A stretch of DNA of 64,000 bases from Anaerolineae bacterium. Lineage in GTDB: Bacteria > Chloroflexota > Anaerolineae > Anaerolineales > UBA6663. Both the position numbers and the translations under genes were made by a program. Positions 1 through 51,262 of the stretch are shown here, one piece after another (the stretch's first letter is position 1; the number at the start of each line of letters is the position of its first letter). A model generated the notes under the pieces. That model was not told the DNA's origin. It was given only the letters and a program-made list of their open reading frames with translations, and did not search any database. Location of the stretch: positions 6,583 through 70,582 of the forward strand of contig JBBIQY010000002.1 of assembly GCA_037442085.1 (NCBI GenBank). The letters run 5' to 3'.

Positions 1-986
1 AGCGCGACGGCCTGGGCGGGACGCCCATCGCCGAAAGCTACGCCGCGCTCACGCACGGCTTCCGCGACGCGGAAGAAGCGCTGGGCGAGATGATCCGGGC
101 CGTCACCCAGAATCCCAACGTGCAGGTCCGCCTCGGGTCGGAGGTCGTCGCCGCCGAAGGCAGCGCGGGCGATTTTAAGGTCACCCTCACCAAAGGCGGC
201 AATGGCGCGGCCGAGGTCGTCAACGTGGGAGCCGTCATCATCGCCACCGGTTTCCAGCACTTCGACCCGGGACGCGAGACGCAGATGTACGGCTATTACG
301 AGTATGACGACGTGATCACGCTCGCCGATGCCGAGGCGATGCTCAAGCAGCGCAAATTCGTCAAGCCGTCTAACGGACAGACCCCCGAGCGCGTGTGTTT
401 CATCCAGTGCGTCGGCTCGCGCGACCGACAGATTGGGAACGAGTTCTGTTCCAAGGTGTGCTGCGGCATCTCGTCCAAGCAGGCCATCGAGGTGCGTCAG
501 CAGTTGCCGAACTGCAAGGTCTTTATCTTCTACATTGATATGCGCATGTACGGCTACTGGGAGAACGAAATTTACTGGCCGGCGCAGGAGCAGTATCACG
601 TCCAATACGTCAAGGGCATCATCACCGAGATCATCCGCAAGGGCGACCGGCTGCTAGTGCGCGGCGAGGACACGACGATGGGCCGCCCGATGGAAGTGCC
701 GATGGATGTGGTGGTGCTGGCGGTGGGGATGGAACCGAGCCGCGGCACGAAGGACGTCGCCAAAATCTTTGGGCTCAGGCAGAACAAGTACAACTTCATT
801 GACGTGCCGCACGAGTCGCTTGACCCTACGGCGACCTCGGTCCCCGGCATCTTCGTCGCGGGCGCGGCCGCCGGGCCGAAAGACCTTGACGACTCGCTGG
901 GGATGGCCGGCGCGGCGGCGGCCAAAGCGGTGGCGCTGGTACATAAACTTCGAACTCCAAACTCCAAATTACCAAACGCCGTTTGA
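1..986 (+). CDS. hdrA: Heterodisulfide reductase subunit A-like flavoprotein (sHdrA-like), 5'-truncated at window edge
   Basis: Frame open from nt 3 with no stop. Carries HdrA-type motifs FIQCVGSRDR, CSKVCCG and PGIFVAGAAAGPKD. Followed by Hdr/ETF partner genes. Confidence 0.85.
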   Translation, partial: RDGLGGTPIAESYAALTHGFRDAEEALGEMIRAVTQNPNVQVRLGSEVVAAEGSAGDFKVTLTKGGNGAAEVVNVGAVIIATGFQHFDPGRETQMYGYYEYDDVITLADAEAMLKQRKFVKPSNGQTPERVCFIQCVGSRDRQIGNEFCSKVCCGISSKQAIEVRQQLPNCKVFIFYIDMRMYGYWENEIYWPAQEQYHVQYVKGIITEIIRKGDRLLVRGEDTTMGRPMEVPMDVVVLAVGMEPSRGTKDVAKIFGLRQNKYNFIDVPHESLDPTATSVPGIFVAGAAAGPKDLDDSLGMAGAAAAKAVALVHKLRTPNSKLPNAV

Positions 987-1028
987 ATGTTGGGAATTTG
1001 AGATTTGGAGTTTGAGATTTGGAGTTCG
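947..1028 (+). repeat. Heptamer-array hairpin, family A (CCAAACT array / loop / AGTTTGG array), copy 1
   Basis: acttcgaactccaaactccaaatt ... atttggagtttgagatttggagttcg. The left arm encodes the last codons of hdrA, and the stop codon at 984-986 lies between the arms. Confidence 0.8.
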
Positions 1029-1077
1029 CAGCTTGCTCACAGGCCAGGTCGTAGATACAGAAACCGCCCGAGAGTTC

Positions 1078-1833
1078 ATGGCTCGGACGCTCGAAAAGGC
1101 GAGCCAGACCGAACTGGGCGACATCGTCAAGGAACTTGAACAAAAGAGCGCACGCTTTCGAGCGCGGCTTGCCCCGGAAGCGCTGACCGGGCTCGACCGC
1201 CCGCAACTGCGCGGCCTCCTGCGCTCCATCTTCGCCACGCGCCGCAAGGCCGACGTCCTGCTCGACGTGATGGGCGTGGAGGGCTTGCGGGAGGCCATCC
1301 ACGAACTCCTCCATGGCACCCCCTCGACCCAGGATCGCTTCCAGGCCTTTGTGGACACGCTCGCCGGCTACTGGGGCGACTTGCGCCTGGCGCGCAAGCC
1401 GCTGCCCGGCCAAGAGGCGGCCGACCTCCCTGAAAACGTCCTGTGCGACCTGGCCGCTGAGCTGCTCCACTTCACCAGCCCGGACGATCGTTGGTTGTGG
1501 ACGCGCTGGATGTGGGATCCGCGCGTGGGCACAGGCGCGCTCCCGCTGGTGACGATGGAAGCGTACGACCTGCACGGGCGAAATGCCGGCGAGACGTACC
1601 TGAAGGTCGGCGTAGCGGTGGCCTTCGTGCGGGCCACGGGCGAGGCCGCCGGGTTCGCCCGCTTCGGCGTGAATCAGAGTCCCTTTGGAATTGACGTCTT
1701 CCTGGCGTGCGTCTACGCCGTCTATATGTACACCACGCTGAGAATCCGAATGACGCAGGAATTCAACCGGGTCGTGCCCCAACTGCCGGAGTTGACGAGG
1801 CGGCTGTTGGGGGTTTGGAAAATGGAGATTTGA
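1078..1833 (+). CDS. Conserved hypothetical protein in the position of the hyp/sHdrH gene of sHdr clusters
   Basis: ATG at 1078 after the hairpin, with GC3-biased codon usage. The track ORF 706-1833 extends upstream only through repeat sequence. No motif recognised. Confidence 0.6.
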   Translation: MARTLEKASQTELGDIVKELEQKSARFRARLAPEALTGLDRPQLRGLLRSIFATRRKADVLLDVMGVEGLREAIHELLHGTPSTQDRFQAFVDTLAGYWGDLRLARKPLPGQEAADLPENVLCDLAAELLHFTSPDDRWLWTRWMWDPRVGTGALPLVTMEAYDLHGRNAGETYLKVGVAVAFVRATGEAAGFARFGVNQSPFGIDVFLACVYAVYMYTTLRIRMTQEFNRVVPQLPELTRRLLGVWKMEI

Positions 1834-1841
1834 ATCGCTAA

Positions 1842-1912
1842 AACGCTGAGAAGGCCGAGGGCGCCGAGAGAACATCCTTCAGCCGTACCAGCACCTCAGC
1901 GAGGCAAAACCC
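1842..1912 (+). repeat. Family B element (AACGCTGAG ... CCTCAGCGAG inverted ends)
   Basis: CGCTGAG at 1844-1850 is complementary to CTCAGCG near 1903-1909. It shares the CCTCAGCGAG end with the copy at 7271-7310. Confidence 0.5.
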
Positions 1913-1922
1913 TGGAGGCACA

Positions 1923-3209
1923 ATGGCAGTCGGTTTAGATAAGGTTCAACCCGAAAAGATCACCGAAGAAAAACAGCTCGTCGTCGAGGGGATGGATATC
2001 TCTGGCCACTGGAACCGGATGTTCGAGCAGCGGGTCATCTGGGATTACGGCGTTGACGCGCTCGAAAAAGTCGCGGCGCTCCCCGGCGGCGAGTCGCTCA
2101 TGTGGTGCTACGGCTGCGCCAAGTGCACCGCCGTCTGCCCGGTGGACATCGTCGGCGATTACTCGCCGCGCAAAATCCACCGCAAGACTCAGATGGGCAT
2201 TGACCTGTTCACCTCGCCCGACCTGTGGCTGTGCACCACCTGCATGAACTGCCTGCGCGTCTGCCCCAAAGAAGTCAACATGATCAAGATCATGCCGGCC
2301 GTGCGCGAACAGGCCGTGCTCGAGGGGACGACCGTGCCGCCCGAATTGCAGAAGGCGTTCGAGGATACGGCCAAGCACGGCAACCCGCTCGGCCAGCCTC
2401 AACGCAAACGCGCCGACTGGGTGAAGAAAGCGGGCGTCCCCGTGCCGATCCTGAAAGACCTGAAGCGCCCGGTGGACATCCTGTGGTACGTCGGCTCGTA
2501 TCCTTCGTATCACCCGCGCGGCATTGACGCGGCCTGCGCCGCCGCCCGCCTCTTCAACGCGCTCGGCATTGATTTCGGCATCCTGGGCATCGAGGAAAAG
2601 GACGACGGCGACTCGCAGCGCCTGGCGGGCGAAAAAGGCCTGTTCGAGATGCTGGCCGAATACAACATCGCCACATTCAGCAAATATCAGTTCAACCGCA
2701 TGGTCGTCACCGGGCCGCACGAGTTCAACGCCTTTAAGAACGAGTATCCGAAATACGGCGCGGACTTCAAGGTGGTGCATTACACGCGCTTCCTCGTCGA
2801 GTATCTGGACAAACTCAGGCCGCTGCTGAAGCAGCCGCTCAATCTGAAGGTGACCTTTCACGATCCATGCTATCTCGGACGGCACAACGGCGAGTACGAC
2901 GCGCCGCGCGAGCTGCTGCGCGCCATCCCCGGCCTCGAACTGGTGGAGATGGGCCGCTGCCGCGAGAACGGCTATTGCTGCGGCGGCGGGGGCGGCGGCA
3001 TGTGGCTCGACTCGTTCTCGAAAGAACACACCAAGATGCGCCTCTCCGAGCGCCGCGTGCGCGAGGCCGTCGAGTACGGCGCAGATGTTCTCGCCGTCTG
3101 CTGTCCCTTTGAAGTCTCGCGCTTCGAGGATGCCGCCAAGAGCACCGGCAACGACCAGTTGAAGGTGCGGGACATTCTGGAATTGCTGGACGAGTCGATG
3201 CGCAGATAA
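1923..3209 (+). CDS. HdrD-like Fe-S protein: HdrC-type ferredoxin domain fused to an HdrB-type double CCG domain (sHdrB3-like)
   Basis: Two CxxCxxCxxxCP motifs (CYGCAKCTAVCP, CTTCMNCLRVCP). CCG-domain motifs DPCYLGR, YCCGGGGG and CCPFE. GGAGG lies 6 nt before the ATG. Confidence 0.85.
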   Translation: MAVGLDKVQPEKITEEKQLVVEGMDISGHWNRMFEQRVIWDYGVDALEKVAALPGGESLMWCYGCAKCTAVCPVDIVGDYSPRKIHRKTQMGIDLFTSPDLWLCTTCMNCLRVCPKEVNMIKIMPAVREQAVLEGTTVPPELQKAFEDTAKHGNPLGQPQRKRADWVKKAGVPVPILKDLKRPVDILWYVGSYPSYHPRGIDAACAAARLFNALGIDFGILGIEEKDDGDSQRLAGEKGLFEMLAEYNIATFSKYQFNRMVVTGPHEFNAFKNEYPKYGADFKVVHYTRFLVEYLDKLRPLLKQPLNLKVTFHDPCYLGRHNGEYDAPRELLRAIPGLELVEMGRCRENGYCCGGGGGGMWLDSFSKEHTKMRLSERRVREAVEYGADVLAVCCPFEVSRFEDAAKSTGNDQLKVRDILELLDESMRR

Positions 3210-3210
3210 A

Positions 3211-3272
3211 TTCAAACTCCAAACTTCAAACTCCAAATCTCAATTGGAAGTTTGAATTTTGAAGTTGGGAGT
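3211..3272 (+). repeat. Heptamer-array hairpin, family A, copy 2
   Basis: ttcaaactccaaacttcaaactccaaatctcaa / ttggaagtttgaattttgaagttgggagtt. It starts 2 nt after the upstream stop, and the GGGAG in the right arm is 6 nt before the etfB ATG. Confidence 0.85.
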
Positions 3273-3276
3273 TACG

Positions 3277-4047
3277 ATGAACATCGTTGTTCCTATCAAA
3301 CAAATCCCCAATCTCACCGACGAACTGGAAATCAACGCCGAGGGCACGGGCCTCGATCACGACGCGCTCCAGTACGTGCTCAATGAGTGGGACGAACAGG
3401 CTCTCGAAGAGGCGGTGCTGGTCAAAGAGACCGCCGGGGGAACCGTCACCGTCATCGGCGTGGATACGACCGGCGAACTGAACGAGGCACTATATACTGC
3501 CCTCGCCAAGGGCGCGGACAAGGCCGCGAAGATCACGGGCGACTTCCCGCGCGGCACGGACTCGCATACCCAGGCCCAACTCTTCGCCGAGGCGATCAAG
3601 AGCCTGTCGCCCGACCTGGTGCTGACGGGCGTGCAGGCCGCCGATGACCGCGACGGCCAGATCGGCCCGATGATTGCCGCGCACCTGGGTTTGCCGTACG
3701 TGGGCGTGGTCACGGGCGTGGCGATCAAGGACGGCAAGGCAATTGTCCACAAGGAATATGCCGGCGGCGTGCTGGCCGAATTTGAAGTGACGCTCCCGGC
3801 AGTCATCGGTGTGCAGGCCGCTCACCAGCCGCCGCGCTACGCCCCCGTGAGCAGAATCCGGCAGATGGCCAAGACGGCGAAGATTGACGAGATCGCCGGA
3901 GGTGAGACGACAAGGGCCGGCTCCACCGTCCGCCGTATGTTCAAGCCCGAATCTGCCGGCCACGCCGAGATGTGGGACGGAAGCCCTGAAGAAGTGGCGG
4001 AGAAGATTTTGGGGCTGATTCGAGAGAAGGGACTCTTGAAGGGCTAA
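3277..4047 (+). CDS. etfB: Electron transfer flavoprotein beta subunit
   Basis: N-terminus MNIVVPIKQIPN is typical of EtfB, and the DLVLTGVQAADD motif is present. It is adjacent to etfA. ATG 3277 is preferred over TTG 3259. Confidence 0.9.
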   Translation: MNIVVPIKQIPNLTDELEINAEGTGLDHDALQYVLNEWDEQALEEAVLVKETAGGTVTVIGVDTTGELNEALYTALAKGADKAAKITGDFPRGTDSHTQAQLFAEAIKSLSPDLVLTGVQAADDRDGQIGPMIAAHLGLPYVGVVTGVAIKDGKAIVHKEYAGGVLAEFEVTLPAVIGVQAAHQPPRYAPVSRIRQMAKTAKIDEIAGGETTRAGSTVRRMFKPESAGHAEMWDGSPEEVAEKILGLIREKGLLKG

Positions 4048-4140
4048 CTTCAAAGTTCAAACTCCAAACTTCAAACTCCAAACTTCAAACTCCAAACTCC
4101 AAAATGCTGCTTTGAAGTTTGAGATTTGAAGTTTGAGGTT
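4047..4140 (+). repeat. Heptamer-array hairpin, family A, copy 3 (longest)
   Basis: About 7 CCAAACT/TCAAACT units, loop atgctgc, then tttgaagtttgagatttgaagtttgaggtt. It ends 9 nt before the etfA ATG. Confidence 0.85.
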
Positions 4141-4148
4141 ACTGAATT

Positions 4149-5108
4149 ATGGCAAACGACATCCTTATCCTCGCCGAACACCTCAACGGTAAACTCGCCG
4201 ACATCGCCTTTGAAATGACGGGCAAGGCAAAGCAGCTCGCCGCCGCGTTCGGGGGCAAGGCCATCGCCGTGCTGCTGGGCAGCGGCGCGAGATCGCTCGC
4301 CGGGTCCATCGGTGCGGACGCCGTGGTGTACGTGGACGACCCCGCACTGGGCGAGTTCAACCCTGAAGCCTATAGCCGCGTCCTGGCCGCCCTGATCAAA
4401 GGGCACGGCCCACGGCTGGTGATGCTGGGCAACACCTCGGTCGGGATGGACCTGGGCGCGGGGCTGTCGGTGACCACCGGACTTCCGCTGATTGCGTACG
4501 TCAACGGCCTCGCTGCCGAGGATGGGACGCTGGTGGCAACCTCGCAGATCTACGGCGGCAAGATCCAGGCCGAGGCCGTGCCCGACGGCGAAGCCTGTAT
4601 CGTCTCGTGCCTGGCGGGGGCGTTCCCTGCCGAGGCGGGGCGCGGCTCCGCCCCGGTCGAGCAGATCGCCTCACCCGTCCCGCTCGACGATTTGAAGGTG
4701 AAGTTCGTCAAACTCATCCAGCCGGAGGGCGGCGACGTGGACATTACGCAGCAGCCGATCCTCGTTTCCATCGGGCGCGGCATCGGCGGGCAGGAGAACA
4801 TCGAACTCGCGCAGGAACTCGCGGAGGCGCTCGGCTGCGCGGTCTCGGCCTCGCGCCCCATCACGGATGCGGGCTGGCTGCCGAAGACGCGGCAGGTGGG
4901 CAAATCGGGCCTCACCGTCAAGCCGAAGATGTATCTCGCGCTCGGCATCTCCGGCGCGCCGGAGCACCTCGAAGGCATGCGCGGCGCGGAGACGATCATC
5001 GCCATCAACACCGACCCCAAAGCGCCCATCTTCGACGTGGCGCACTACGGGGCGACGTGCGACCTGCTGGATTTGCTTCCGGCGCTGACGGAAAAAATCA
5101 AGGGCTAG
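4149..5108 (+). CDS. etfA: Electron transfer flavoprotein alpha subunit
   Basis: C-terminal FAD-binding region matches EtfA: SASRPITDAGWLPKTRQVGKSGLTVKPKMYLALGISGAPEHLEGM. Confidence 0.9.
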   Translation: MANDILILAEHLNGKLADIAFEMTGKAKQLAAAFGGKAIAVLLGSGARSLAGSIGADAVVYVDDPALGEFNPEAYSRVLAALIKGHGPRLVMLGNTSVGMDLGAGLSVTTGLPLIAYVNGLAAEDGTLVATSQIYGGKIQAEAVPDGEACIVSCLAGAFPAEAGRGSAPVEQIASPVPLDDLKVKFVKLIQPEGGDVDITQQPILVSIGRGIGGQENIELAQELAEALGCAVSASRPITDAGWLPKTRQVGKSGLTVKPKMYLALGISGAPEHLEGMRGAETIIAINTDPKAPIFDVAHYGATCDLLDLLPALTEKIKG

Positions 5109-5180
5109 TTTCAAAATTCAAACTCCAAACCTCAAAACTCAAATTGAAGTTTGAAGTTTGGAGTTCGGAGTTTGGAGTTC
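5109..5180 (+). repeat. Heptamer-array hairpin, family A, copy 4
   Basis: tttcaaaattcaaactccaaacctcaaaactcaaa / ttgaagtttgaagtttggagttcggagtttggagttc. It ends 6 nt before the GTG at 5186. Confidence 0.85.
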
Positions 5181-5185
5181 ATCTC

Positions 5186-7312
<2,127 letters not shown>

Positions 7313-7321
7313 CTCAACGGC

Positions 7322-7771
7322 ATGGCTCAAGGTCTCAACAACCTTTCCTCCGCCCTGGCGCTGCGCCTGCGCGACATCGCCCGGATGCTGGACCGGATTG
7401 ACCGGCTGGAGTCCGGCACGGGCGAGTGGCTGGCCGCGCAAGGTGAAAGCGCGCTGCGAGACGCCGCCACCGACATGACCCTGCGCGCCCTGCGCGTCGC
7501 CGCCGACCCGACGAACTTCGCTCTCCTCAACTTCCTCGCGACGCACGCTGCCACGCCCATGGCCGAGCTCGAGAAAGCCACCGGCCTCGGGCGGCTGGCG
7601 CTCGCGGAGCGGGTGAACGACCTGGTGCAGGTCGGGCTCGCCGGACGGAACATTGACACCGATCACGTGCAGTGCACGGCCGGCGGCGCGGCGCTGGTGG
7701 AATTGATTGACAGCATTGGCGCGACGACGGCGAAACGACTGGCAGAAGCGTTGCAGCCGATCACCCGCTAA
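7322..7771 (+). CDS. Putative winged-helix transcriptional regulator
   Basis: 149 aa with an HTH-like stretch TPMAELEKATGLGRLALAERVNDLVQVGLAGR. GC3-biased. No strong SD. Confidence 0.5.
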   Translation: MAQGLNNLSSALALRLRDIARMLDRIDRLESGTGEWLAAQGESALRDAATDMTLRALRVAADPTNFALLNFLATHAATPMAELEKATGLGRLALAERVNDLVQVGLAGRNIDTDHVQCTAGGAALVELIDSIGATTAKRLAEALQPITR

Positions 7772-7810
7772 GACGGCTAAAATCAACCGAAACATCGTGA
7801 GGAGGCCATC

Positions 7811-8641
7811 ATGTGTGTCCCAGTATGTCGGGCAAAGATCGCACAAAACATGAGCCGCCGCAGTTTCCTGAAGCTGGCCGGAGCGGCGACGGCAGCGACG
7901 GCGGCGGCCGCTTGCGCCCCGTCAACGCCGGCCCCTGCCGCCGAAGGCCCGAAATACTCGTTCAGTCGCGTGGTGGACCTGACCCACACCATCACGCCCG
8001 AGTTCCCGACCTACGGCGGCGAGAAGCAACTGGAATTCGAAACGCTCGTCACCCTGGCCGCGGACGGCTACAACATGTACAAATGGCTGCTGGTGGAGCA
8101 CACCGGCACCCATATGGACGCGCCCTTTCATTTCTCCGATCGGGATAGCGCCGATCTGATCCCGCTGGAAAATCTGATCGGCCCGCTGGCGGTGGTGGAC
8201 ATTCGCGCTAAAGCCGAGAACAACCCCGACGCGCAACTGACGACGGACGATCTGAAAACCTGGGAAAGCCAATATGGGCCGATCCCCACAGGGGGCATCG
8301 TGGCCATGTACAGCGGCTGGGACGCCCATACCCGGACCGGCAAATTCCGCAACGCCGACGCTAACGGGGTGATGCACTTCCCCGGCTTTCACATCGAGGC
8401 CATCGAGTTTCTGCTGGCCGAACGGGATGTGAAGGGGATCTTCGTAGATACACTGAGCCTGGACTACGGGCCCTCGACCGATTTTGTGGTGCACTACAAA
8501 TGGCTGCCGGCCAACCGCTGGGGGATGGAATGCGTCGCTAACCTGGGGCAACTGCCGGCCAAAGGCGCTATGGCAATCGTGGGCGGCCCGAAGATCGCCG
8601 GAGCGACCGGCGGGCCAGGCCGCGTGATCGCCCTGCTATGA
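7811..8641 (+). CDS. Cyclase / arylformamidase (kynurenine formamidase) family protein with a Tat-type signal and possible lipobox
   Basis: SRRSFLKLAGAATAATAAAACAP signal and the HTGTHMDAPFHF cyclase motif. GAGGAGG lies 6 nt before ATG 7811. Confidence 0.8.
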   Translation: MCVPVCRAKIAQNMSRRSFLKLAGAATAATAAAACAPSTPAPAAEGPKYSFSRVVDLTHTITPEFPTYGGEKQLEFETLVTLAADGYNMYKWLLVEHTGTHMDAPFHFSDRDSADLIPLENLIGPLAVVDIRAKAENNPDAQLTTDDLKTWESQYGPIPTGGIVAMYSGWDAHTRTGKFRNADANGVMHFPGFHIEAIEFLLAERDVKGIFVDTLSLDYGPSTDFVVHYKWLPANRWGMECVANLGQLPAKGAMAIVGGPKIAGATGGPGRVIALL

Positions 8642-8964
8642 AATGCCCGTACTGCGACTTTGCCGGCTCGCGCATGAAACTTCACCGGCATCTCGGCGAG
8701 GCGCACCTCGACCAGGTAACGACCAAGCACGACGCGGCGACGGGCAAGATGCGCTACGTCATCGGCTGTCCGGTATGCGGCCTGAAATACCAGCACGCCG
8801 TCAAGCCGCGCTACAGGGACGCGCGCTTCCTCGAAGAATACAGGGCCGAGATTGCGCTGGTGGCTTTCGACCAACTGCTTTACCATCTCGAAGAGAAACA
8901 CCCGGAACAAACTTCAAACTCAAAACTACGCCATTCAAACACCCCGCCTGAAGCTGCGGTTTGA
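8638..8964 (+). CDS. Small protein with two CxxC...HxxxxH (C2H2-like) zinc-finger motifs
   Basis: CPYCDF..HRHLGEAH and CPVCGL...YHLEEKH. ATGA overlap with the upstream stop. The C-terminal 15 aa are encoded by the hairpin left arm. Confidence 0.55.
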   Translation: MKCPYCDFAGSRMKLHRHLGEAHLDQVTTKHDAATGKMRYVIGCPVCGLKYQHAVKPRYRDARFLEEYRAEIALVAFDQLLYHLEEKHPEQTSNSKLRHSNTPPEAAV

Positions 8965-8972
8965 AGTTGAAA
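8908..8972 (+). repeat. Heptamer-array hairpin, family A, copy 5
   Basis: caaacttcaaactcaaaactacgccattcaaac ... ggtttgaagttgaaattt, straddling the stop at 8962-8964. Confidence 0.7.
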
Positions 8973-8991
8973 TTTTTCGCCAGAGGTGAAC

Positions 8992-9429
8992 ATGGCGCTC
9001 TGCAACAACTGCAACATCCCCGAGAACCTCTACTACTGGGTAGAGAAACACACCTGGTGCCGGCGCGAGTCGGATGGAACCGTCGTCGTCGGCATCACCG
9101 ACGTGGCCCAGCACCTCGCCAAATCCATCATCTCGGCCACGCCGAAAGAGGCGGGCAAGCCGATTAAGAAGGGCAAAAGCGCAGGCACGGTCGAGAGCGG
9201 CAAATGGGTCGGGCCGGTGACCGCGCCCGTAAATGGCACCATCACCGAAGTCAACGCCGCGCTCAAGACCAGGCCCGGCCTGTTGAATGCCGATCCCTAT
9301 GGCGAGGGCTGGTTCATCAAAATCAAACCCGACAACTGGGAGACGGACTCGGCCGATCTCGTCACGGGCGACGCCGGGATTGCGGCGTATCAGAAGTTCC
9401 TGGACGAGCAGGGCATCAAATGCGAATAA
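8992..9429 (+). CDS. lbpA: GcvH-like lipoate-binding protein (LbpA-like) 1
   Basis: GcvH fold motifs: VGITDVAQ, lipoyl-lysine context VESGKWVG, NADPYGEGWF. AGAGG lies 5 nt before ATG 8992. Confidence 0.85.
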   Translation: MALCNNCNIPENLYYWVEKHTWCRRESDGTVVVGITDVAQHLAKSIISATPKEAGKPIKKGKSAGTVESGKWVGPVTAPVNGTITEVNAALKTRPGLLNADPYGEGWFIKIKPDNWETDSADLVTGDAGIAAYQKFLDEQGIKCE

Positions 9430-9500
9430 CCCCAAACTCCCAAACCCAAAACTCAAATCGCAAACGATGGCTTGGGGTTTGGGGCTTGAAGTTTGCAGTT
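9429..9500 (+). repeat. Heptamer-array hairpin, family A variant, copy 6
   Basis: ccccaaactcccaaacccaaaactcaaa / cttggggtttggggcttgaagtttg. CCCCAAAC pairs with GTTTGGGG as a perfect 8 bp stem. It ends 3 nt before ATG 9503. Confidence 0.8.
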
Positions 9501-9502
9501 CA

Positions 9503-9952
9503 ATGATCTACTACGGCTGCGACATCCCCGAAGACCTGTTCTTCGACTTCGAGCGCGATCTGTGGGTGCGCTTCGAGGCCGACGGCGTGGCCACGCTGGG
9601 GATGACGGACACGGCTCAGACGCGCGGCGGAAAACTGGTGAACATCCAGTTCAAACGGGTCGGCAAACTGCTCAAACAAGGCCAGAGCGCCGCCATCATC
9701 GAGTCGGCCAAGTGGGTCGGGCCGTTCCCCATGCCGTTCAGCGGCGTGATCACCGCGACCAACGAAGCGACATTTCGCCGCGACATACTGATCGCCAACC
9801 GCGATCCTTACGGGGAAGGCTGGCTGGTCAAAGTGCAGCCGACGGCCATCGAAACCGAACGGGAGCATTTGATCACGGGCGAGGCCGCCGTCGCCAAATA
9901 CAAACACCGCATCGTCGAGCTGGGCCTGAAATGCTTTCGCTGCCTGGATTGA
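9503..9952 (+). CDS. lbpA: GcvH-like lipoate-binding protein (LbpA-like) 2
   Basis: LGMTDTAQ, IESAKWVG, NRDPYGEGWL. Paralog of the previous gene. Confidence 0.85.
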   Translation: MIYYGCDIPEDLFFDFERDLWVRFEADGVATLGMTDTAQTRGGKLVNIQFKRVGKLLKQGQSAAIIESAKWVGPFPMPFSGVITATNEATFRRDILIANRDPYGEGWLVKVQPTAIETEREHLITGEAAVAKYKHRIVELGLKCFRCLD

Positions 9953-9969
9953 ACCTCGAGGAGTCTTGA

Positions 9970-10410
9970 ATGTCCACCAACGGTCACGACGCTTTTCCAC
10001 CCGAGCTTTACTACGACCGCGTGACGCACGTTTGGGCGCGGGACGATGGCGCGACCGTGACCATCGGCCTCGACGCGCTCGGCCTGGAGTCGCTCGGCGA
10101 CATGGCCTACCTCAGTTTGCAGGCCAGCGGCGTTCCGGTGCGACGCGGCGAGGCCATCGGCAGCTTGGAGGCCGCGAAGATGGTAGGGGATCTGATCGCG
10201 CCCGTCAGCGGCGTCATCGCCGCGCGCAACGAGGAGGTACTGCGCGACCCCGGCCTCATCAACCGCGACCCCTACCGCGCGGGCTGGCTCGTCCAGATTA
10301 CGCCTTCCGATTGGGCGCGTGAGTCCGCCGAACTGGTGCACGGCGCGGCTTTGACAGCCTGGGTGAAAGCGGAAGTCGAGCGGTATCGGATGCAGGGATG
10401 GATTAAGTGA
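9970..10410 (+). CDS. lbpA: GcvH-like lipoate-binding protein (LbpA-like) 3
   Basis: IGLDALG, LEAAKMVG, NRDPYRAGWL. Lacks the terminal cysteines of copies 1 and 2. Confidence 0.8.
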   Translation: MSTNGHDAFPPELYYDRVTHVWARDDGATVTIGLDALGLESLGDMAYLSLQASGVPVRRGEAIGSLEAAKMVGDLIAPVSGVIAARNEEVLRDPGLINRDPYRAGWLVQITPSDWARESAELVHGAALTAWVKAEVERYRMQGWIK

Positions 10411-10488
10411 ACTCCCAACTTCAAAACTCCCAACTTCAAAACTCAGACTTCAAAGCGGCAAACCTCTGCACTTTCGAGTTTGAAGTTA
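10410..10488 (+). repeat. Heptamer-array hairpin, family A, copy 7
   Basis: aactcccaacttcaaaactcccaacttcaaaactcagacttcaaa ... ctttcgagtttgaagttaactc. It ends 6 nt before ATG 10494. Confidence 0.75.
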
Positions 10489-10493
10489 ACTCA

Positions 10494-11702
10494 ATGACAA
10501 CTTGGCGACTCATTACAGACGACAATGTCACCGCCTCCTTCGGCCTCGCCGCCGACGAGTGCCTGGCCAGGCGCGTGGGCGCGGGCCAGAGCCAGCCGAC
10601 TCTGCGGCTGTACACGTATCGCTCGCACTGCGCGCTCGTCGGACGCTTCCAGAATCTCGACAACGAAATTCAACGCGACTACTGCGAGGCGCACGGCGTC
10701 GCCCTCAACCGCCGGCCCACCGGCGGCGGCGCGATCCTCATGGGCCAGGACCAACTCGGCGTGGCGCTGACCCTCCCCGCGAGCGGCGACGACGCCTACA
10801 GCCGCGCCCGTGAACTCATGGGGCAATTCTCAGCCGGCATCGTCCACGCCCTCGAGGCGCTCGGCATAAGGGCCAACTTTCGGCGCAAGAACGATATCGA
10901 AGTCGGCGGCAAAAAGATCGTGGGGTTGGGAATCTACCGGGCGCACGGCCTCCCGCGACCCGATTCAGCGCCCTCAGAACCGTCGGCGACTCAGCGATCC
11001 GGCCTGCTCTTCCATGCTTCCCTGCTCGTCGGCCTCGACATCCCGCTGATGCTGCGCGTGCTCAAAACGCCGTTCGAGAAAATTTCGGACAAAGCGATCG
11101 CCACCGTCGCCGAGCGCGTTACGACGGTGCGCCGTGAAATCGGACGCGAGATTGAACTAAACGAAGTCCGCGCGCGAGTCGTCGAGGGTTATGCGGCCGC
11201 TTTCGGAGCCTCGCTCACTCCCGGCACATTCACCGGCGATGAGAGTCTCGCCATCTCCGATCTCCAATCTCAGAAGTACGACTCCCACGAGTGGGTGCAC
11301 CAAATCACTGCCGTCCCCGACGCGCTCGGCTCGGCCACCGTCAAAACGCCCGGCGGCCTGCTCGACGTCCGCGTGACCTTGGCGGGCAACACCATTAAAG
11401 CGGTATTCGTCGGCGGAGACTTCTTTGCCGCCGAGGGCGCGATCGCCGACCTCGAGGCCAGTCTGCGCTGGCACGCCGCCGAGCCGCGCGCCGTGGCCGC
11501 GACCCTCGCTCAGGCATACGCGAAACGCGCCAGCGATCTCGCCATGCTGCCGCTCGACTCGCTCACCCAGGCGATTCAACAAGCGGTTCGCCGCGCCCAA
11601 GTAGCCGAGTCTGCCGCGCGCGCCGACCCGTACGGGTGCTTTGTGAATCCCGATCCCCAACCGCAAACCTCGAAGGAGTTACACCCGAGGGTCGCGCTTT
11701 GA
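10494..11702 (+). CDS. Lipoate-protein ligase, two-domain sLpl(AB)-like
   Basis: BPL/LplA/LipB core motifs NRRPTGGGAILMGQDQL and GGKKIVGLG, plus an LplA C-terminal-like domain. Adjacent to the LbpA and LipS genes. Confidence 0.8.
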   Translation: MTTWRLITDDNVTASFGLAADECLARRVGAGQSQPTLRLYTYRSHCALVGRFQNLDNEIQRDYCEAHGVALNRRPTGGGAILMGQDQLGVALTLPASGDDAYSRARELMGQFSAGIVHALEALGIRANFRRKNDIEVGGKKIVGLGIYRAHGLPRPDSAPSEPSATQRSGLLFHASLLVGLDIPLMLRVLKTPFEKISDKAIATVAERVTTVRREIGREIELNEVRARVVEGYAAAFGASLTPGTFTGDESLAISDLQSQKYDSHEWVHQITAVPDALGSATVKTPGGLLDVRVTLAGNTIKAVFVGGDFFAAEGAIADLEASLRWHAAEPRAVAATLAQAYAKRASDLAMLPLDSLTQAIQQAVRRAQVAESAARADPYGCFVNPDPQPQTSKELHPRVAL

Positions 11703-11718
11703 AGTTTGGAGTTCGAGC
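11655..11718 (+). repeat. Degenerate family A hairpin, copy 8 (clear right arm only)
   Basis: The right arm tttgaagtttggagttcgag (11697-11718) is clear. The left partner ccccaaccgcaaacctcgaa is weak. Confidence 0.4.
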
Positions 11719-11728
11719 TTGCTCTGAT

Positions 11729-12622
11729 ATGCCTGAAATCACGTTTCACGCGCCCGGCCTCAAACGCTTCAAGACGACCGAGTACGCCGAACAGGAGGCG
11801 ACCCGTTTCGTGTCCATCAGCGTGACGGGGACTGAGTGCGCCCTGGCGTGTGAGCATTGCAAGACACATGTTCTCGAGGGCATGACGGCCCTGCCCCGTT
11901 TCGATGGCACGCTGTTCGATTTATGCTGCGAGCTGGCGGAACGCGGCGCGCGCGGGGTGCTGGTCTCCGGCGGCTGCGACAGGCGCGGGCGTGTCCCGCT
12001 CCTCCGCCACCTCCCGGATTTGATCCGCGTCCGCCGCGAACTTGGCTTCCTCATCCGCGTCCACCCCGGCCTGCCCGACGAGGAAACCGTCGCGGGCCTG
12101 GCCGAGGTTGGGATTGACGGCGCGATGGTGGACATCATCGGCGACGACGCGACCATCCGTGAGGTTTATCATCTCGACGCGACCATCGCCGAATATGAGG
12201 CTGTGCTGGAGCGGCTGGAACGCTACCAGGTGCCTGCCGTGCCACACATCATTCTGGGGTTACACTTCGGGCAGATGCGCGGCGAGTGGACGGCGCTCGA
12301 CATGATCACGCGCCACGCCCGGAAATTCCTTGTGCTTGTGATCCTCATGCCGCTCACCGGGACGCCCATGGTCGGCGTGACGCCGCCGCCCGTCTCGGAG
12401 ATTGCCCGGTTCTTCGCCCTTGCGCGCCGTGCCTTGCCCGCTACGCCGGTCATGCTCGGCTGTGCGCGCCCGCTCGGCAAAATCAAAATCGAGATTGATC
12501 GCGCCGCCGTGGACGCCGGGCTGAACGGCATTGCGTATCCGGCGGAAGGCATTATCGCCTACGCCCGCACGCGCGGCCTGACGCCAAAATTTGTGGATGC
12601 GTGTTGTGGAGTGCAGTGGTAG
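11729..12622 (+). CDS. Radical SAM protein, LipS1/LipS2-type lipoyl synthase candidate (which of the two is not resolved)
   Basis: CALACEHC is a CxxxCxxC motif. ~297 aa. Sits between the ligase and the second radical SAM gene. Confidence 0.7.
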   Translation: MPEITFHAPGLKRFKTTEYAEQEATRFVSISVTGTECALACEHCKTHVLEGMTALPRFDGTLFDLCCELAERGARGVLVSGGCDRRGRVPLLRHLPDLIRVRRELGFLIRVHPGLPDEETVAGLAEVGIDGAMVDIIGDDATIREVYHLDATIAEYEAVLERLERYQVPAVPHIILGLHFGQMRGEWTALDMITRHARKFLVLVILMPLTGTPMVGVTPPPVSEIARFFALARRALPATPVMLGCARPLGKIKIEIDRAAVDAGLNGIAYPAEGIIAYARTRGLTPKFVDACCGVQW

Positions 12623-12683
12623 CGAACAGTAGAGAGCGAGTGGCGGGTAGCCGATAGCCATCCGTCATCAGCCGAAGGAGTCT

Positions 12684-13766
12684 ATGGCGAAAGTCACGCT
12701 TTCCTCCAAAGAACAGGCCGAGCAGTTGCAGATCAGCCCGGAGTATGTTCGCATTTCGATGGCCGCCGCGATCGAGCTGGGCCTCAAGCCGGGGCGTATG
12801 TTCCGCGATGTTCACTGTGGCTGCATCAATCTGCTGCAAAACTATCCCGAAGGATGCTACGCCAACTGCTCGTATTGCGGGCTGGCCCGCGAACGGCCCG
12901 GCGCGCCGGAAGACAACACCTTCATCCGCGTGGCGTGGCCTCTTTTCCCGACCGACCTCGTCGCGGAAAAGATCGCCGAGCGCGAGGCGTGCATCGGGCG
13001 GGTGTGCATCGCTCAGGTGCAGGACCATCGCGCCTACGAGGATTTGATTGACATGATCGGGCGCGTGCGCCGATTGAGCGCCGTGCCCATCTCGGCGCTG
13101 GTCTCGGCGACCACGCTGAACGAAGAGCGGTTGAGCTGCCTCAAGGACGCGGGCGCAGACATTATTGGCGTCGGGCTGGACGCGGCCTCCGAAGCCGTGT
13201 TCTACAACACCCGCGGGCGGGGCGTCAGAGGGCCGCACGACTGGGTTCATCACTGGCAGATTGTCCGAGCCGCACGCCGCTTGTTCGGGCCGCTGAAAGT
13301 CAATTGCCACATCATCGTCGGCCTCGGCGAGACCGACCGCGACCTGGTCAATCTCTTCTACCAGCTCAAGTCGGAACAGATTGCCGGCTACCTGTTCTCG
13401 TTCAACCCGGAACCCGGCACGGCCATGCAGGCCACGCCGCGCGCGCCCATTCACCGCTGGCGACGGATTCAACTCACGAAACATCTCATCGAGCATCACG
13501 ACCTGTCGCCCGAGGCGATTGAATTCGACGCCGAAGGGAACATCGTCCGTCTCAACGCGCCCCAGCTGATGGTGGAGGTCGCCGTGAACACCGGTCTGCC
13601 GTTTATGACCAACGGCTGCCCCGACCGCAACGGCGTGATGGCCTGCAACCGCCCCTACGGCTCATACCGCCCCGGCGAAGAATTCCGCGACTATCCATTT
13701 TTGCCAAACGCCGATGATTTGATCGTCATCCGCCAGCAGATGCGATTGGAAGAAATCTGGCAGTGA
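12684..13766 (+). CDS. Radical SAM protein, BioB/LipS-type, second lipoyl synthase candidate
   Basis: CYANCSYCGL is a CxxxCxxC motif. C-terminal Cys-rich NGCPDRNGVMACNRP. GAAGGAG precedes the ATG. Confidence 0.7.
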   Translation: MAKVTLSSKEQAEQLQISPEYVRISMAAAIELGLKPGRMFRDVHCGCINLLQNYPEGCYANCSYCGLARERPGAPEDNTFIRVAWPLFPTDLVAEKIAEREACIGRVCIAQVQDHRAYEDLIDMIGRVRRLSAVPISALVSATTLNEERLSCLKDAGADIIGVGLDAASEAVFYNTRGRGVRGPHDWVHHWQIVRAARRLFGPLKVNCHIIVGLGETDRDLVNLFYQLKSEQIAGYLFSFNPEPGTAMQATPRAPIHRWRRIQLTKHLIEHHDLSPEAIEFDAEGNIVRLNAPQLMVEVAVNTGLPFMTNGCPDRNGVMACNRPYGSYRPGEEFRDYPFLPNADDLIVIRQQMRLEEIWQ

Positions 13767-13815
13767 TGTATTGCGAATTCCATGCGGCGAATGCCGCGCA
13801 GACGGAACACGCGCG

Positions 13816-14826
13816 ATGCCCTCCCCGATTCGTCTCCTGAGCCTCGGCGCTATCCACTGGCTCCGCACCCAGTCGGTCTATCACGCCCTGGCCGAGACGA
13901 TGACGGCGGGGTCGCCCGACACGATTGTGCTGACGCGGCCGGCGCAGCCCTATCTGTGCCTCGGCTACCATCAGGAATTGGAGGCGGTGCTCGATCGCGC
14001 GGCGTGCGCGGCGCTGGGCCTGCCCATCGTGCGGCGCAGGGTAGGCGGCGGCGCGACGTATCTTGACTCGGATCAACTTTTTTATCAGTGCCTGTTTCAT
14101 CACACGCGCGTCCCGGCGACCGTTAGCGGCGTATATGCGCAACTGCTGGCCGCGCCGGTGGCGACGCTGCGGGCGCTGGGCCTGAGCGTCGAGTTGCGGG
14201 GCGAGAACGAGATCGAGGTGGGGGGCGATCGCGATGGTCATCGCGCCGGGAAACGAATTGCCGGGATCGGCGGCGGCAGGATTGGGGAGGCAGCGGTGGT
14301 CGTCGGCAATATCCTGTTCGATTTTGACTATGAAGCGATGGCGCGCGCCTGGCGCGTCCCCTCGGAGTCGTTCCGCCGGTTGGCCGCCGAGGCCCTGCGC
14401 GAGTGCGTCACGACTCTGAGGCGCGAATTGCCGCGCCCCGTCCCGCCCGATGACGTTCAGGCCGTCCTGATTTACGAATTCGCCCGCGCCCTCGGCCGTC
14501 CGGTGAAGCCCGGCGAGCTGACGCCGCAGGAGGCGCGCAAAATTGGCGAGCTCGACCGGCGCCTCGTCTCCACAAAATGGCTGAACCTGCAGGCCAACGG
14601 CGCGAAGCCGATGACGGCGCTCAAAATCTCGCGCGGCGTCTTCATCCACGCCGCCGAAGCGAAGATCGCAAACTACAAAGTGCGCGCGGCCTTTCGCGTT
14701 CGCGACGACGTGATCGAGCGGACGATGCTGGAAAGCGAACCGGAGCGCGACTGGCGAGAGGCAGCAGAAAACTTGAGGGGGACGAAAGTGAGAGAATGGG
14801 TGCGGGGGGTGGAGGCGCAAATATGA
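13816..14826 (+). CDS. LplA/LipB-superfamily paralog 2 (two-domain, motifs intact)
   Basis: VRRRVGGGATYLDSDQLFY and GKRIAGIGGG, plus a C-terminal domain resembling the LplA C-domain. Confidence 0.7.
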   Translation: MPSPIRLLSLGAIHWLRTQSVYHALAETMTAGSPDTIVLTRPAQPYLCLGYHQELEAVLDRAACAALGLPIVRRRVGGGATYLDSDQLFYQCLFHHTRVPATVSGVYAQLLAAPVATLRALGLSVELRGENEIEVGGDRDGHRAGKRIAGIGGGRIGEAAVVVGNILFDFDYEAMARAWRVPSESFRRLAAEALRECVTTLRRELPRPVPPDDVQAVLIYEFARALGRPVKPGELTPQEARKIGELDRRLVSTKWLNLQANGAKPMTALKISRGVFIHAAEAKIANYKVRAAFRVRDDVIERTMLESEPERDWREAAENLRGTKVREWVRGVEAQI

Positions 14827-15572: not shown

Positions 15573-15593
15573 AAACAACGGCCACAAAAAAGA

Positions 15594-15611
15594 GGTGCGC
15601 GAAAGCGCACC
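15594..15611 (-). terminator. GC stem with GAAA tetraloop; the T-tract is on the minus strand only
   Basis: ggtgcgc-gaaa-gcgcacc is preceded on the plus strand by aaaaaaga, so the minus strand reads stem + TCTTTTTT. Confidence 0.45.
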
Positions 15612-15685
15612 GCTTCCAAGTCGGCTGACGGCGACCTCCCGAGCGATTGCCGCATGATTAGATCGGCGACAGAAAGCGAAACCAC

Positions 15686-18352: not shown

Positions 18353-18402
18353 ATCGCTCAAACGCTGACGACGCTGATGACGCTGAAAACCAGTGCTTCA
18401 GT

Positions 18403-18780: not shown

Positions 18781-18830
18781 TTGCCTCTCCACTCTCAGCG
18801 TCCTCAGCATAATCAGCGCCTCAACGATAT
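18773..18830 (+). repeat. Family B element (AACGCTGATT-loop-TCAGCGTCCTCAGC-ataaTCAGCG)
   Basis: aacgctgattgcctctccactctcagcgtcctcagcataatcagcgcc shares both ends with 7271-7310. Confidence 0.6.
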
Positions 18831-18843
18831 CAAAGGACCCGGC

Positions 18844-21732: not shown

Positions 21733-21780
21733 AGGAAGAAGGAAGCAATGGAGATTCAGCCTTCATCCTTCAGCCTTCAT
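21722..21780 (+). repeat. Perfect 15-bp inverted repeat (ATGAAGGCTGAAGGA / TCCTTCAGCCTTCAT) bracketing a gene junction
   Basis: The left arm (21722-21736) contains the upstream TGA. The loop holds a purine-rich SD and ATG 21748. The right arm (21766-21780) lies in codons 7-11 of the next gene and is half-duplicated at 21755-21766. Confidence 0.85.
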
Positions 21781-34025: not shown

Positions 34026-34097
34026 GCGGGTGTAGTTCAGTGGTAGAACGCTTGCTTCCCAAGCAAGATATCGTGGGTTCGAATCCCATCACCCGCT
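34026..34097 (+). tRNA. tRNA-Gly (anticodon CCC)
   Basis: Manual cloverleaf: acceptor gcgggtg/cacccgc, D stem gttc/gaac, anticodon stem cttgc/gcaag with loop ttCCCaa, T arm gtggg-ttcgaat-cccat. 72 nt, CCA not encoded. Confidence 0.9.
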
Positions 34098-51255: not shown

Positions 51256-51262
51256 CTGACGT

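Follow-up and report, generated by a model that had tools for sequence, protein, structure and literature searches.

Tandem-heptamer hairpins at the cistron junctions of a sulfur-oxidation operon in an Anaerolineae bacterium

A 64,000-nucleotide stretch of an uncultured Anaerolineae bacterium (contig JBBIQY010000002.1, positions 6,583 to 70,582; hereafter the window) opens with a long operon in which many intercistronic spacers are occupied by hairpins whose two arms are tandem arrays of a 7-nt unit, (CAAACTY)n-loop-(RAGTTTG)n. These hairpins fill the space between the stop codon of one gene and the Shine-Dalgarno (SD) site or start codon of the next. They are fast-evolving relatives of heptamer repeats already on record. 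CAAACTY/RAGTTTG is just one of at least ten interchangeable units, and what recurs across related genomes is the hairpin and its period of 7, not the CTCC/GGAG content of the arms. Elements of this class populate transcribed spacers right after stop codons in the Anaerolineae clade, in Vicinamibacterales and in Chthoniobacterales. The explanation that we favour, to which we give even chances of being right, is that they are palindromic heptamer simple sequence repeats (SSRs) that would be grown by slippage, seeded at stop codons and confined to the stretch from stop to SD, where they would form cistron-end stem-loops resembling those of repetitive extragenic palindromic (REP) sequences.

The operon (1-15.6 kb, plus strand) is, according to Pfam, of the type-II sulfur-oxidising heterodisulfide-reductase-like (sHdr) kind. 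It comprises hdrA, a gene for a hypothetical protein, an hdrC2/B2 fusion, etfB, etfA, a gene for an EMO-like Fe-S/CCG protein (EMO), and genes encoding three GcvH-like LbpA proteins, LplA-like ligases and two radical-SAM proteins. Over 4084 nt the window is 100% identical to an independent Logan contig (L001), which carries the operon further upstream (tusA-dsrE-dsrE-hdrC1-hdrB1) and contains four additional elements, at dsrE-dsrE, dsrE-hdrC1, hdrC1-hdrB1 and hdrB1-hdrA. Since this independent assembly is identical to the window, the elements are not assembly artefacts.

Within the window, inverted CAAACTY arrays stand at the junctions where an earlier note, made from the sequence alone, had placed them. 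The 14-mer CAAACTYCAAACTY, allowing up to two mismatches, has 41 matches in the window against 0.45 expected, a number reached in none of 100 shuffles, and 34 of the 41 fall in 944-11715. Tandem Repeats Finder returned arrays of period 7 or 14. The window has 12 arrays with a period of 7, whereas periods of 8-10 are not represented. The likeness to cyanobacterial short tandemly repeated repetitive (STRR) sequences that the note had drawn was apt. RNA folding z-scores, computed against dinucleotide shuffles, show that five junction elements are far stabler than chance (z -3.4 to -4.4, about -22 to -34 kcal/mol), so that tandem-heptamer hairpins at cistron junctions are real. The other three of the eight junctions proposed fared less well, one being marginal and two folding like shuffled sequence. 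Heptamer elements of the first 22 kb are as follows, in window coordinates.

945-1034, CAAACTY-type hairpin between hdrA and the hypothetical gene; fold of 940-1035 at -30.8 kcal/mol, z -4.4.
1834-1905, decayed remnant of another heptamer family (ACGCTGA/TCAGCG); z -0.8.
3207-3274, CAAACTY-type hairpin between hdrC2B2 and etfB; fold of 3200-3285 at -21.8 kcal/mol, z -3.4; TAA stop at the stem base, right-arm GGGAG 5 nt before ATG 3277.
4045-4141, CAAACTY-type hairpin between etfB and etfA; fold of 4040-4155 at -33.5 kcal/mol, z -4.3; eight left units against four right units.
5109-5181, CAAACTY-type hairpin between etfA and EMO; fold of 5100-5192 at -28.6 kcal/mol, z -3.5; GGAG straddling the stem end, 8 nt before GTG 5186.
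7263-7304, CGCTGAT/ATCAGCG hairpin in the last 50 coding nt of EMO, with the next start close behind at 7322; z -3.3.
8905-8972, weak CAAACT-type element; fold of 8900-9000 no better than shuffles, z -0.3; SD of lbpA1 (AGAGGTG) outside the element.
9427-9500, CAAACTY-type hairpin between lbpA1 and lbpA2; fold of 9422-9510 at -28.4 kcal/mol, z -3.5; left arm and loop conserved with the related operon L122 (below); no SD-like motif before ATG 9503.
10407-10489, marginal CAAACT-type element between lbpA3 and lplA; fold of 10405-10500, z -1.7; left array long, right arm short.
11655-11718, decayed remnant; fold of 11645-11735 no better than shuffles, z +0.2; a left-arm-like part inside the lplA coding end, then two right units.
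18349-18386, ACGCTGA array, left arm of a long-range inverted repeat, complementary at 30 of 38 positions to 18795-18833.
18795-18833, TCAGCGT array, right arm of the same long-range inverted repeat, pairing with 18349-18386.
21716-21784, hairpin of a third family (GAAGGCT/AGCCTTC), purine arm first, between the Mo-oxidoreductase gene and a TorD-like gene; TGA 21730 in the left arm, ATG 21748 in the loop; z -4.2.

The CAAACT type does not fill every junction in an unbroken run of eight, as had been claimed: five of the 13 junctions from hdrA to the first radical-SAM gene are without it. These are 1833-1923, which holds the decayed element of the CGCTGAG type; 7312-7322, served instead by the CGCTGAT-type hairpin; 7771-7811; the overlap at 8641/8638; and 9952-9970. 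The claim that junctions beyond ~22.8 kb lack the element is borne out by a window-wide scan for gapless hairpins (score of at least 24). Only eight hits came out. Five of them have period 7, namely 21722-21780 and four junction elements of the CAAACT type; another is the stem of the CGCTGAT type at 7263-7304. These six heptamer hits all lie before 22 kb. None of the junction hairpins matches an Rfam 15 family at the gathering threshold. Intrinsic (Rho-independent) terminators were considered and rejected, no junction hairpin being found among the terminator-like sites; the stems are A+T-rich and lack a T-run.

The comparison with related genomes separates the hairpin from its sequence. EtfA homologues of 81-93% identity carry the source names Chloroflexi or Anaerolineae, and the orthologous operon was taken from eight further assemblies (L122, L124-L128, L130 and L214), in which etfA has 79-93% nucleotide identity to that of the window. 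Gene order is conserved across the ten genomes and most intercistronic spacers are again tandem-heptamer hairpins; the heptamer unit varies both between junctions and between orthologous junctions (CAAACTY, TAGCAGA, ACAATGA, ACGTGAA, CTGACGA, TTGGGTG and others). Between hdrC2B2 and etfB the unit is CAAACTC in the window, CTGACGA in L122 and L130, TTGGGTG/CACCCAA in L124 and L125, and TTGGTAA/TTACCAA in L127. The junction of etfB and etfA has CGTATTC/GAATACG in L125, ACGTGAA/TTCACGT in L128 and GCGCTGA/TCAGCGT in L126, and that of lbpA1 and lbpA2 has ACAATGA/TCATTGT in L125 and L128 and TGGCAGA/TCTGCCA in L127. Before hdrC2B2, downstream of the hypothetical gene, the CGCTGAG type is common to the window and the distant L126; the CAAACT type occupies this place in L122, L124 and L127.

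Among intercistronic spacers of 40-200 nt in eight operon copies, 74 of 113 fold with z < -2 (median z -3.1). Of 115 intercistronic spacers with a length of 40 nt or more, 52 had a strong period-7 hairpin, a lower bound, as the classifier (score of at least 20, period-7 identity of at least 0.55) misses some periodic hairpins such as that between dsrE2 and hdrC1 in L125; of 11 promoter-side spacers at these loci none had one (Fisher p = 0.003). The promoter-side spacers counted were RR-tusA, RR-HTH and HTH-tusA; those between HTH and tusA hold ordinary GC-rich, U-tailed terminators instead.

Differences between close relatives show how the elements turn over. At the junction of etfB and etfA, L122 and L130 have a common left arm and loop, and the right arm of L122 is five units longer. 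At the next junction the whole hairpin, including the stop codon of etfA and the start codon of EMO, has been replaced, being of the CAAACT type in L122 and of the GGCAAGT type in L130. Element lengths range from 44 to 127 nt, and the two arms have unequal numbers of units.

Placement is tied to the ends of coding sequences. Measured from the last base of the stop codon, most of 69 hairpins have a stem that begins at -4 to +7 nt, within reach of the terminating ribosome as the earlier note had supposed; since the stem spans from the stop codon, this ribosome would melt the stem base. At the other side, stems end a median of ~14 nt before the start codon, and the SD usually follows the stem directly. 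The stop codon itself often belongs to the array. In 54 of 115 junctions it stands in the register of the array, defined as at least two of its three bases recurring 7 nt downstream, compared with 10-23% at control offsets inside coding sequence; in the window it takes the AAA slot of the first AAACTYC unit. The arrays do not serve to close all three reading frames, a possibility that was rejected: the arms have no excess of stop trinucleotides (0.043 and 0.059 per nt), and no more than 29 of 63 spacers have stops in all three frames.

Three tandem CAAACTY units were sought in 185,579 species genomes, which gave at least 120 loci. The matches listed come from Bacteroidota, Nostoc, Vicinamibacterales, Anaerolineae, Planctomycetota, Verrucomicrobiota, Nitrospirota, candidate phyla and others. 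Most of these are single arrays; two-armed forms occur mainly in Vicinamibacterales, other Acidobacteriota and Chthoniobacterales, where, again among the matches listed, they adjoin stop codons between co-directional or convergent genes. The CAAACTY arrays listed often adjoin arrays of other heptamers (CTTCACC, GATTGGA, GCTAAGA). An origin from SD-like heptamers was rejected as a general route: across the at least 120 genome loci an ORF start follows G-rich and C-rich arrays at similar frequency (18 versus 23 of about 148), so that such seeding is unsupported outside the Anaerolineae clade.

In metagenomes, the two-armed CAAACT pattern was found at 120 loci, 60 of which were classified by the orientation of their flanking genes. 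Forty-seven lie between co-directional, 10 between convergent and three between divergent genes, 57 of the 60 being downstream of a stop codon; two more lie inside ORFs. Spacers of 40-300 nt on the same contigs divide into 140 co-directional, 23 convergent and 29 divergent. There is thus no same-strand enrichment over this baseline among the 60 hairpins, and divergent spacers are mildly depleted (p = 0.045). Flanking gene pairs include sucC-sucD, rpsL-rpsG, cytochrome c-cytochrome b and livG-livF. The sHdr operon accounts for 14 of the 120 loci and also occupies the most loaded contig, L214, where eight hairpins lie within 7 kb. As there are, in addition, 12 elements in 16 kb against none in the other 41 kb of the window, the operon is a genuine hot spot.

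How such elements might arise and persist can be outlined as follows. Arrays would often be seeded at a stop codon, in register with it, and each arm would then grow independently in 7-nt steps by replication slippage, while inverted duplication or replacement of the whole hairpin would keep both arms in one family. Selection would confine the arrays to the stretch between stop and SD, expansion proceeding until coding sequence and SD or start are met. In the polycistronic mRNA, each spacer would then form a 20-35 bp stem-loop lacking a U-tract, that is, a REP-like cistron end, whose likeliest effect would be to block 3'-exonucleases or to punctuate the decay of a very long (~20 kb) transcript. 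Folding would also hold each stop near the start that follows, which would leave termination-linked initiation functional. The observations reported here show the anatomy, stability, class, placement, turnover and dispensability of the elements, and we infer the mutational route and any role in the RNA.

Several observations weigh against this outline. By itself, slippage accounts neither for an inverted arm nor for one family recurring at many junctions, and the strong concentration in one operon is not predicted by palindromic SSRs. Slippage is also not fast: the junctions are the same, with no copy-number polymorphism, in three contigs that represent one strain in three samples, and a hypermutable, phase-variable SSR was rejected for this timescale. 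The hairpins are individually dispensable, as is evident from decayed remnants (in the window at 1834-1905, 11655-11718 and 12622-12684), from single-armed arrays and from orthologous junctions that are free of the element. In some genomes the same gene pairs are joined by only 0-17 nt; L125, for example, has 0 nt between its two radical-SAM genes and 3 nt between lbpA3 and lplA. Finally, selection on the RNA is not demonstrated. A test for strand asymmetry was negative, both in the types of stem mismatch on the sense strand (45 G-U versus 66 A-C) and in the minimum free energy of sense and antisense strands (-33.0 versus -32.7 kcal/mol, p = 0.61).

It is somewhat unlikely, in our estimation, that the hairpins are purely mutational or selfish by-products with no role in the RNA, arrays and inverted copies accumulating where they are harmless and then decaying. 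The gain and loss of elements at orthologous junctions, the remnants, the unequal arms with expansion of one arm only, the absence of strand asymmetry, the presence of arrays inside coding sequences and a spread over junction classes close to the spacer baseline are all as expected of neutral repeats. However, intercistronic occupancy is high in all ten operon copies despite the turnover of sequence, and none of the 11 long promoter-side spacers of the same loci is occupied. Both arms are always replaced together, so that complementarity is either maintained or regenerated, and an operon hot spot is unexpected under uniform neutral accumulation.

The hairpins could also be a selected but sequence-free punctuation of long operons, in which geometry is maintained and the heptamer sequence is free to turn over; we regard this as unlikely. 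In this geometry a stem of 20-35 bp would carry the stop codon at its 5' base and an SD or start at its 3' base. If this were true, the folded hairpin would allow ribosomes to be handed over, by termination-reinitiation or a shunt-like transfer, to starts lacking an SD, and hairpins would define units of processing and stability, with the sHdr-etf-lbpA-lipS operon as the flagship target. The same class would then operate in uncultured soil bacteria of several phyla, in operons such as rpsL-rpsG and sucCD.

The earlier note had favoured purpose-built SD-sequestering modules, in which the CUCC-rich 5' arm masks the next GGAG until the terminating ribosome melts the stem, enforcing translational coupling and subunit stoichiometry. 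A precedent is the MS2 coat-replicase junction, an SD-sequestering intercistronic hairpin with translational coupling. Like such hairpins, the present elements have the upstream stop at the stem. It lies at the 5' base, the next start being 2-20 nt past the 3' base, and all 30 hairpins of the CAAACT type in the operons have their C-rich arm on the 5' side. In the window, a right-arm motif is indeed the only SD candidate of etfB (GGGAG, 5 nt from the start), etfA (GAGGT, 9 nt) and EMO (GGAG, 8 nt), inside the arm or straddling its end. The same had been said of the gene at 11729, whose GGAG is too far away (18 nt), and the rule that a right-arm GGAG stands next to the following start fails elsewhere as well: the SD of the gene at 8992 lies outside the arm, and the starts at 9503 and 10494 have no SD-like motif.

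These three junctions are not representative of the class. Of 63 strong junction hairpins, 31 have their best SD-like motif 3' of the stem, typically as stem-CCCGGAGGGAC-ATG and hence as a free GGAGG directly after it; it is absent in 24, lies inside the right arm in seven and straddles the stem end in one, so that SD-sequestering is not the organising principle of the elements. The window's etfB, etfA and EMO belong to these last eight. In the 24 junctions lacking an SD, several of which have the start touching the stem, initiation plausibly depends on the upstream ribosome, and it is possible that SD-less starts do so generically, by way of any stem that abuts the start. Unlike SD-sequestering hairpins, the elements are also found with no downstream gene to serve, identical hairpins being present between convergent genes, and the lack of same-strand enrichment points the same way. 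In nine orthologous operons, corresponding junctions have unrelated heptamers devoid of CTCC/GGAG content, such as CGTATTC/GAATACG, ACAATGA/TCATTGT and CTGACGA, and the same gene pairs work elsewhere with spacers of 0-17 nt.

The mismatches also speak against masking. Left arms are richer in C, and right arms richer in A, than mirror symmetry predicts, so that C-A mismatches (43) outnumber U-G (29). In the CAAACT family the numbers are 35 and 21, which means that its left arms have more CTCC than its right arms have GGAG. Nor does the order of the arms carry a signal of orientation. An array followed by its reverse complement has the same layout on both strands, so that 'CTCC arm first, GGAG arm second' says nothing about orientation, and every metagenome match to the two-armed pattern was reported on both strands. 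The pairing of SD with anti-SD motifs is a by-product of one heptamer sequence and mostly incidental, and purpose-built masking modules seem to us quite improbable.

Still less probable are non-autonomous mobile palindromes or cassette remnants, akin to REPINs or to MITEs (transposable elements that are miniature and have inverted repeats); a transposase, or insertion targeted to hairpins, would have carried copies of them from junction to junction, with the heptamer arms as terminal inverted repeats. This would accommodate the recurrence of one family at many junctions of a genome (TAGCAGA following TAG stop codons in L126 and L127, ACGTGAA in L128, CAAACT in the window), the replacement of whole hairpins with their stop and start codons between close relatives, and the small ORFs found between arms (PF05635 in L122, L124 and L214, GxxExxY in the window). 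Against it, loops and lengths differ between copies, which have no conserved core, no target-site duplication was seen, and the more than ten families of a clade would call for a large number of cognate enzymes. The loci examined, a small part of any genome, yielded no transposase. L122 does contain a near-identical pair of hairpins (lbpA1-lbpA2 and lbpA3-lplA), which is explained by tandem duplication of lbpA.

Punctuation by RNase III, known to process phage T7 early mRNA and the intervening sequences of 23S rRNA, would make the stems double-strand-specific sites that cut the ~20-kb transcript into cistron units; stems of 20-35 bp with few mismatches are in the size range of its substrates, and some loops contain PF05635 genes (the '23S rRNA intervening-sequence protein'), which are otherwise known from 23S rRNA intervening sequences that RNase III excises, yet stem length and perfection vary widely and hairpins also lie between convergent genes, so that we consider this highly unlikely.

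The palindromic SSRs that we favour have relatives among known repeats. The STRR sequences of cyanobacteria, reportedly described by Mazel and colleagues in 1990, have the consensus units CCCCAGT, TTGGTCA and CAACAGT. Like these and other heptameric SSRs, the present elements are tandem 7-nt units that are mostly intergenic, often within operons and in part inside genes, with several unrelated families per genome and copy numbers that vary between relatives. Unlike STRRs, they are hosted by Chloroflexota (also by Acidobacteriota and Verrucomicrobiota), their units (CAAACTY, TAGCAGA, ACAATGA) are not those of the STRR consensus, and the arrays here are mostly paired with an inverted array as hairpins that nearly saturate the junctions of one operon. 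Structured and variable spacers were reportedly also noted in the nif genes of Anabaena by Jackman and Mulligan in 1995. Among the long SSRs of prokaryotes, units of seven are the most frequent, according to the summary of Mrazek et al. 2007 given in PMC4679880.

The nearest case on record is that of Xanthomonas genomes, which carry the heptamer GGGAATC at ~70 loci each, in two convergent arrays capable of forming a stem-loop (Rehm et al. 2015, PMC4692102); the single or inverted type is kept between species while length varies, and most are transcribed (PMC4692102). The present elements are likewise two nearby convergent arrays of one unit, with the type kept among relatives and the length variable. 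In contrast, GGGAATC is G-rich and forms G-quadruplexes, which CAAACTY/RAGTTTG, having no serial GGG runs, cannot; one unit dominates each Xanthomonas genome where many are found here, and no replacement of units at orthologous sites is reported there. Direct repeats of TAACTGA, known from Beggiatoaceae, Cyanobacteria and Bacteroidetes (MacGregor 2015, PMC4679880), are a second relative; they are only a few nucleotides away from start codons, in many cases where a canonical ribosome-binding site is missing, and a translational role has been proposed for them (PMC4679880). They too are one heptamer common to distant phyla, with ribosomal-protein operons among the sites, but they contain stop codons and have no complementary arm, with one indirect repeat reported.

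In where they are placed, the elements resemble REP sequences. REP sequences reportedly stabilise mRNA (Newbury and colleagues, 1987), and stop-proximal copies are said to affect translation (Liang, Rudd and Deutscher, 2015). Similar to the elements described here, they are imperfect palindromes of transcribed spacers after stop codons (often within 15 nt), located in co-directional or convergent spacers and rarely in divergent ones, have no U-tract and are plausible barriers to 3'-exonucleases. REP sequences differ in forming one sequence family per RAYT transposase, with a GTAG end and no tandem periodicity, whereas the heptamer hairpins have a free unit sequence, unrelated loops and arms that are 7-nt arrays. 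REPs, together with bacterial interspersed mosaic elements (BIMEs) and REPINs, are extragenic palindromes of Proteobacteria (PMC3116915).

Other classes were rejected on anatomy. MITEs are excluded by lengths of 44-127 nt, by unequal arms and by the absence of target-site duplications at the element ends, and CRISPR arrays were likewise rejected. The attC sites of integrons are palindromes of variable sequence and conserved structure, 57-141 bp long, that follow each ORF of an array. Unlike attC sites, which have no heptamer periodicity, the hairpins lack RYYYAAC/GTTRRRY core sites (right arms end in GTTACGA or GTTACTG), and the operons have a conserved gene order rather than cassettes.

In the literature searched, no description of heptanucleotide repeats in Chloroflexi was found. 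New here are the phylum, the dominance of two-armed forms, a single conserved operon that is nearly saturated, hairpins that persist at orthologous junctions even as their heptamer is replaced, and the stop-codon register. To our knowledge, heptamer repeats (STRRs and their relatives) have been on record for 35 years with no accepted function or origin. The ten copies of one conserved 20-gene operon amount to a natural experiment in which the same spacers are found in different states: as hairpins of unrelated heptamers, with differing unit numbers, as decayed remnants or with no spacer at all. Two questions become testable in this way, namely whether the pairing is selected or mutationally regenerated, and whether the stems set mRNA stability or coupling at the level of the cistron.

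There are also practical consequences for metagenome-assembled genomes, since the arrays cause spurious C-terminal extensions and doubtful start-codon calls in their annotation. At 941-986, the hdrA ORF runs through the left arm to TGA 984-986, in the loop or right arm, and gains the repeat-encoded tail KLRTPNSKLPNAV; HdrA has 361 amino acids (aa) in the window and L124, and 355 aa in L122 and L125-L127. Similarly, at 8905-8964, a 108-aa ORF continues through left arm and loop to TGA 8962-8964 with the tail QTSNSKLRHSNTPPEAAV. Arrays also break short-read assemblies at gene boundaries. L001 ends, and L129 begins, in the element between etfB and etfA (4045-4141), and many contigs with an EtfA homologue are just 1-4 kb long, that is, one gene with an array on either side.

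In-frame arrays occur within five other genes of the window as well. They are located at 5299-5330, 11251-11271, 17825-17853, 19732-19790, 22096-22131 and 22325-22355, in the N-terminus of EMO, LplA, an NrfD part, the Mo-oxidoreductase and the TorD-like gene; their units are CCAATCT/GATTGGA, AACTTCA and related heptamers, which encode low-complexity inserts such as NFRIQTSSPQSPVSNLPIS. Beyond 23 kb, the only arrays of this kind seen are three copies of ATGACCG at 51236-51261, at the end of a membrane-transporter-like ORF, and a GC-rich intragenic array at 50908-50932.

Some loops contain genes. Between hdrA and the hypothetical gene, three operon copies hold a small four-helix-bundle gene (PF05635/TIGR02436) between a CAAA-type left and a TTTG-type right arm (L122 6497-6862, L124 6526-6888, L214 8586-8966). 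A degraded remnant of it is present in L128 (~6790-6958), and the window junction has no insert. A PF05635 homologue of Thiohalocapsa (L110, 2774-3130) is likewise bracketed by TTTG and CAAA arrays. In the window, a frameshifted GxxExxY gene (TIGR04256, 18392-18777) between NrfCD-like and Mo-oxidoreductase genes is bracketed by the ACGCTGA/TCAGCGT arrays at 18349-18386 and 18795-18833, and thus sits in the loop of a long-range heptamer hairpin. L122 additionally has a DUF433-PIN toxin-antitoxin pair (13389-13988) inside the operon, between EMO and a 149-aa gene; next to the pair stand an array of the right-arm kind and a duplicate of the beginning of the 149-aa gene.

Two further features of the window are separate from the heptamer elements. 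The sole Rfam match in the window (Rfam 15, gathering threshold) is a tRNA gene:

34026-34097, tRNA gene.

At 15590-15615, a GC-rich stem (GGTGCGCGAAAGCGCACC) preceded by an A-run scores as a minus-strand intrinsic terminator; both neighbouring genes are on the plus strand, and the stem marks the end of the lipoate-gene block, before an Mrp-like gene.

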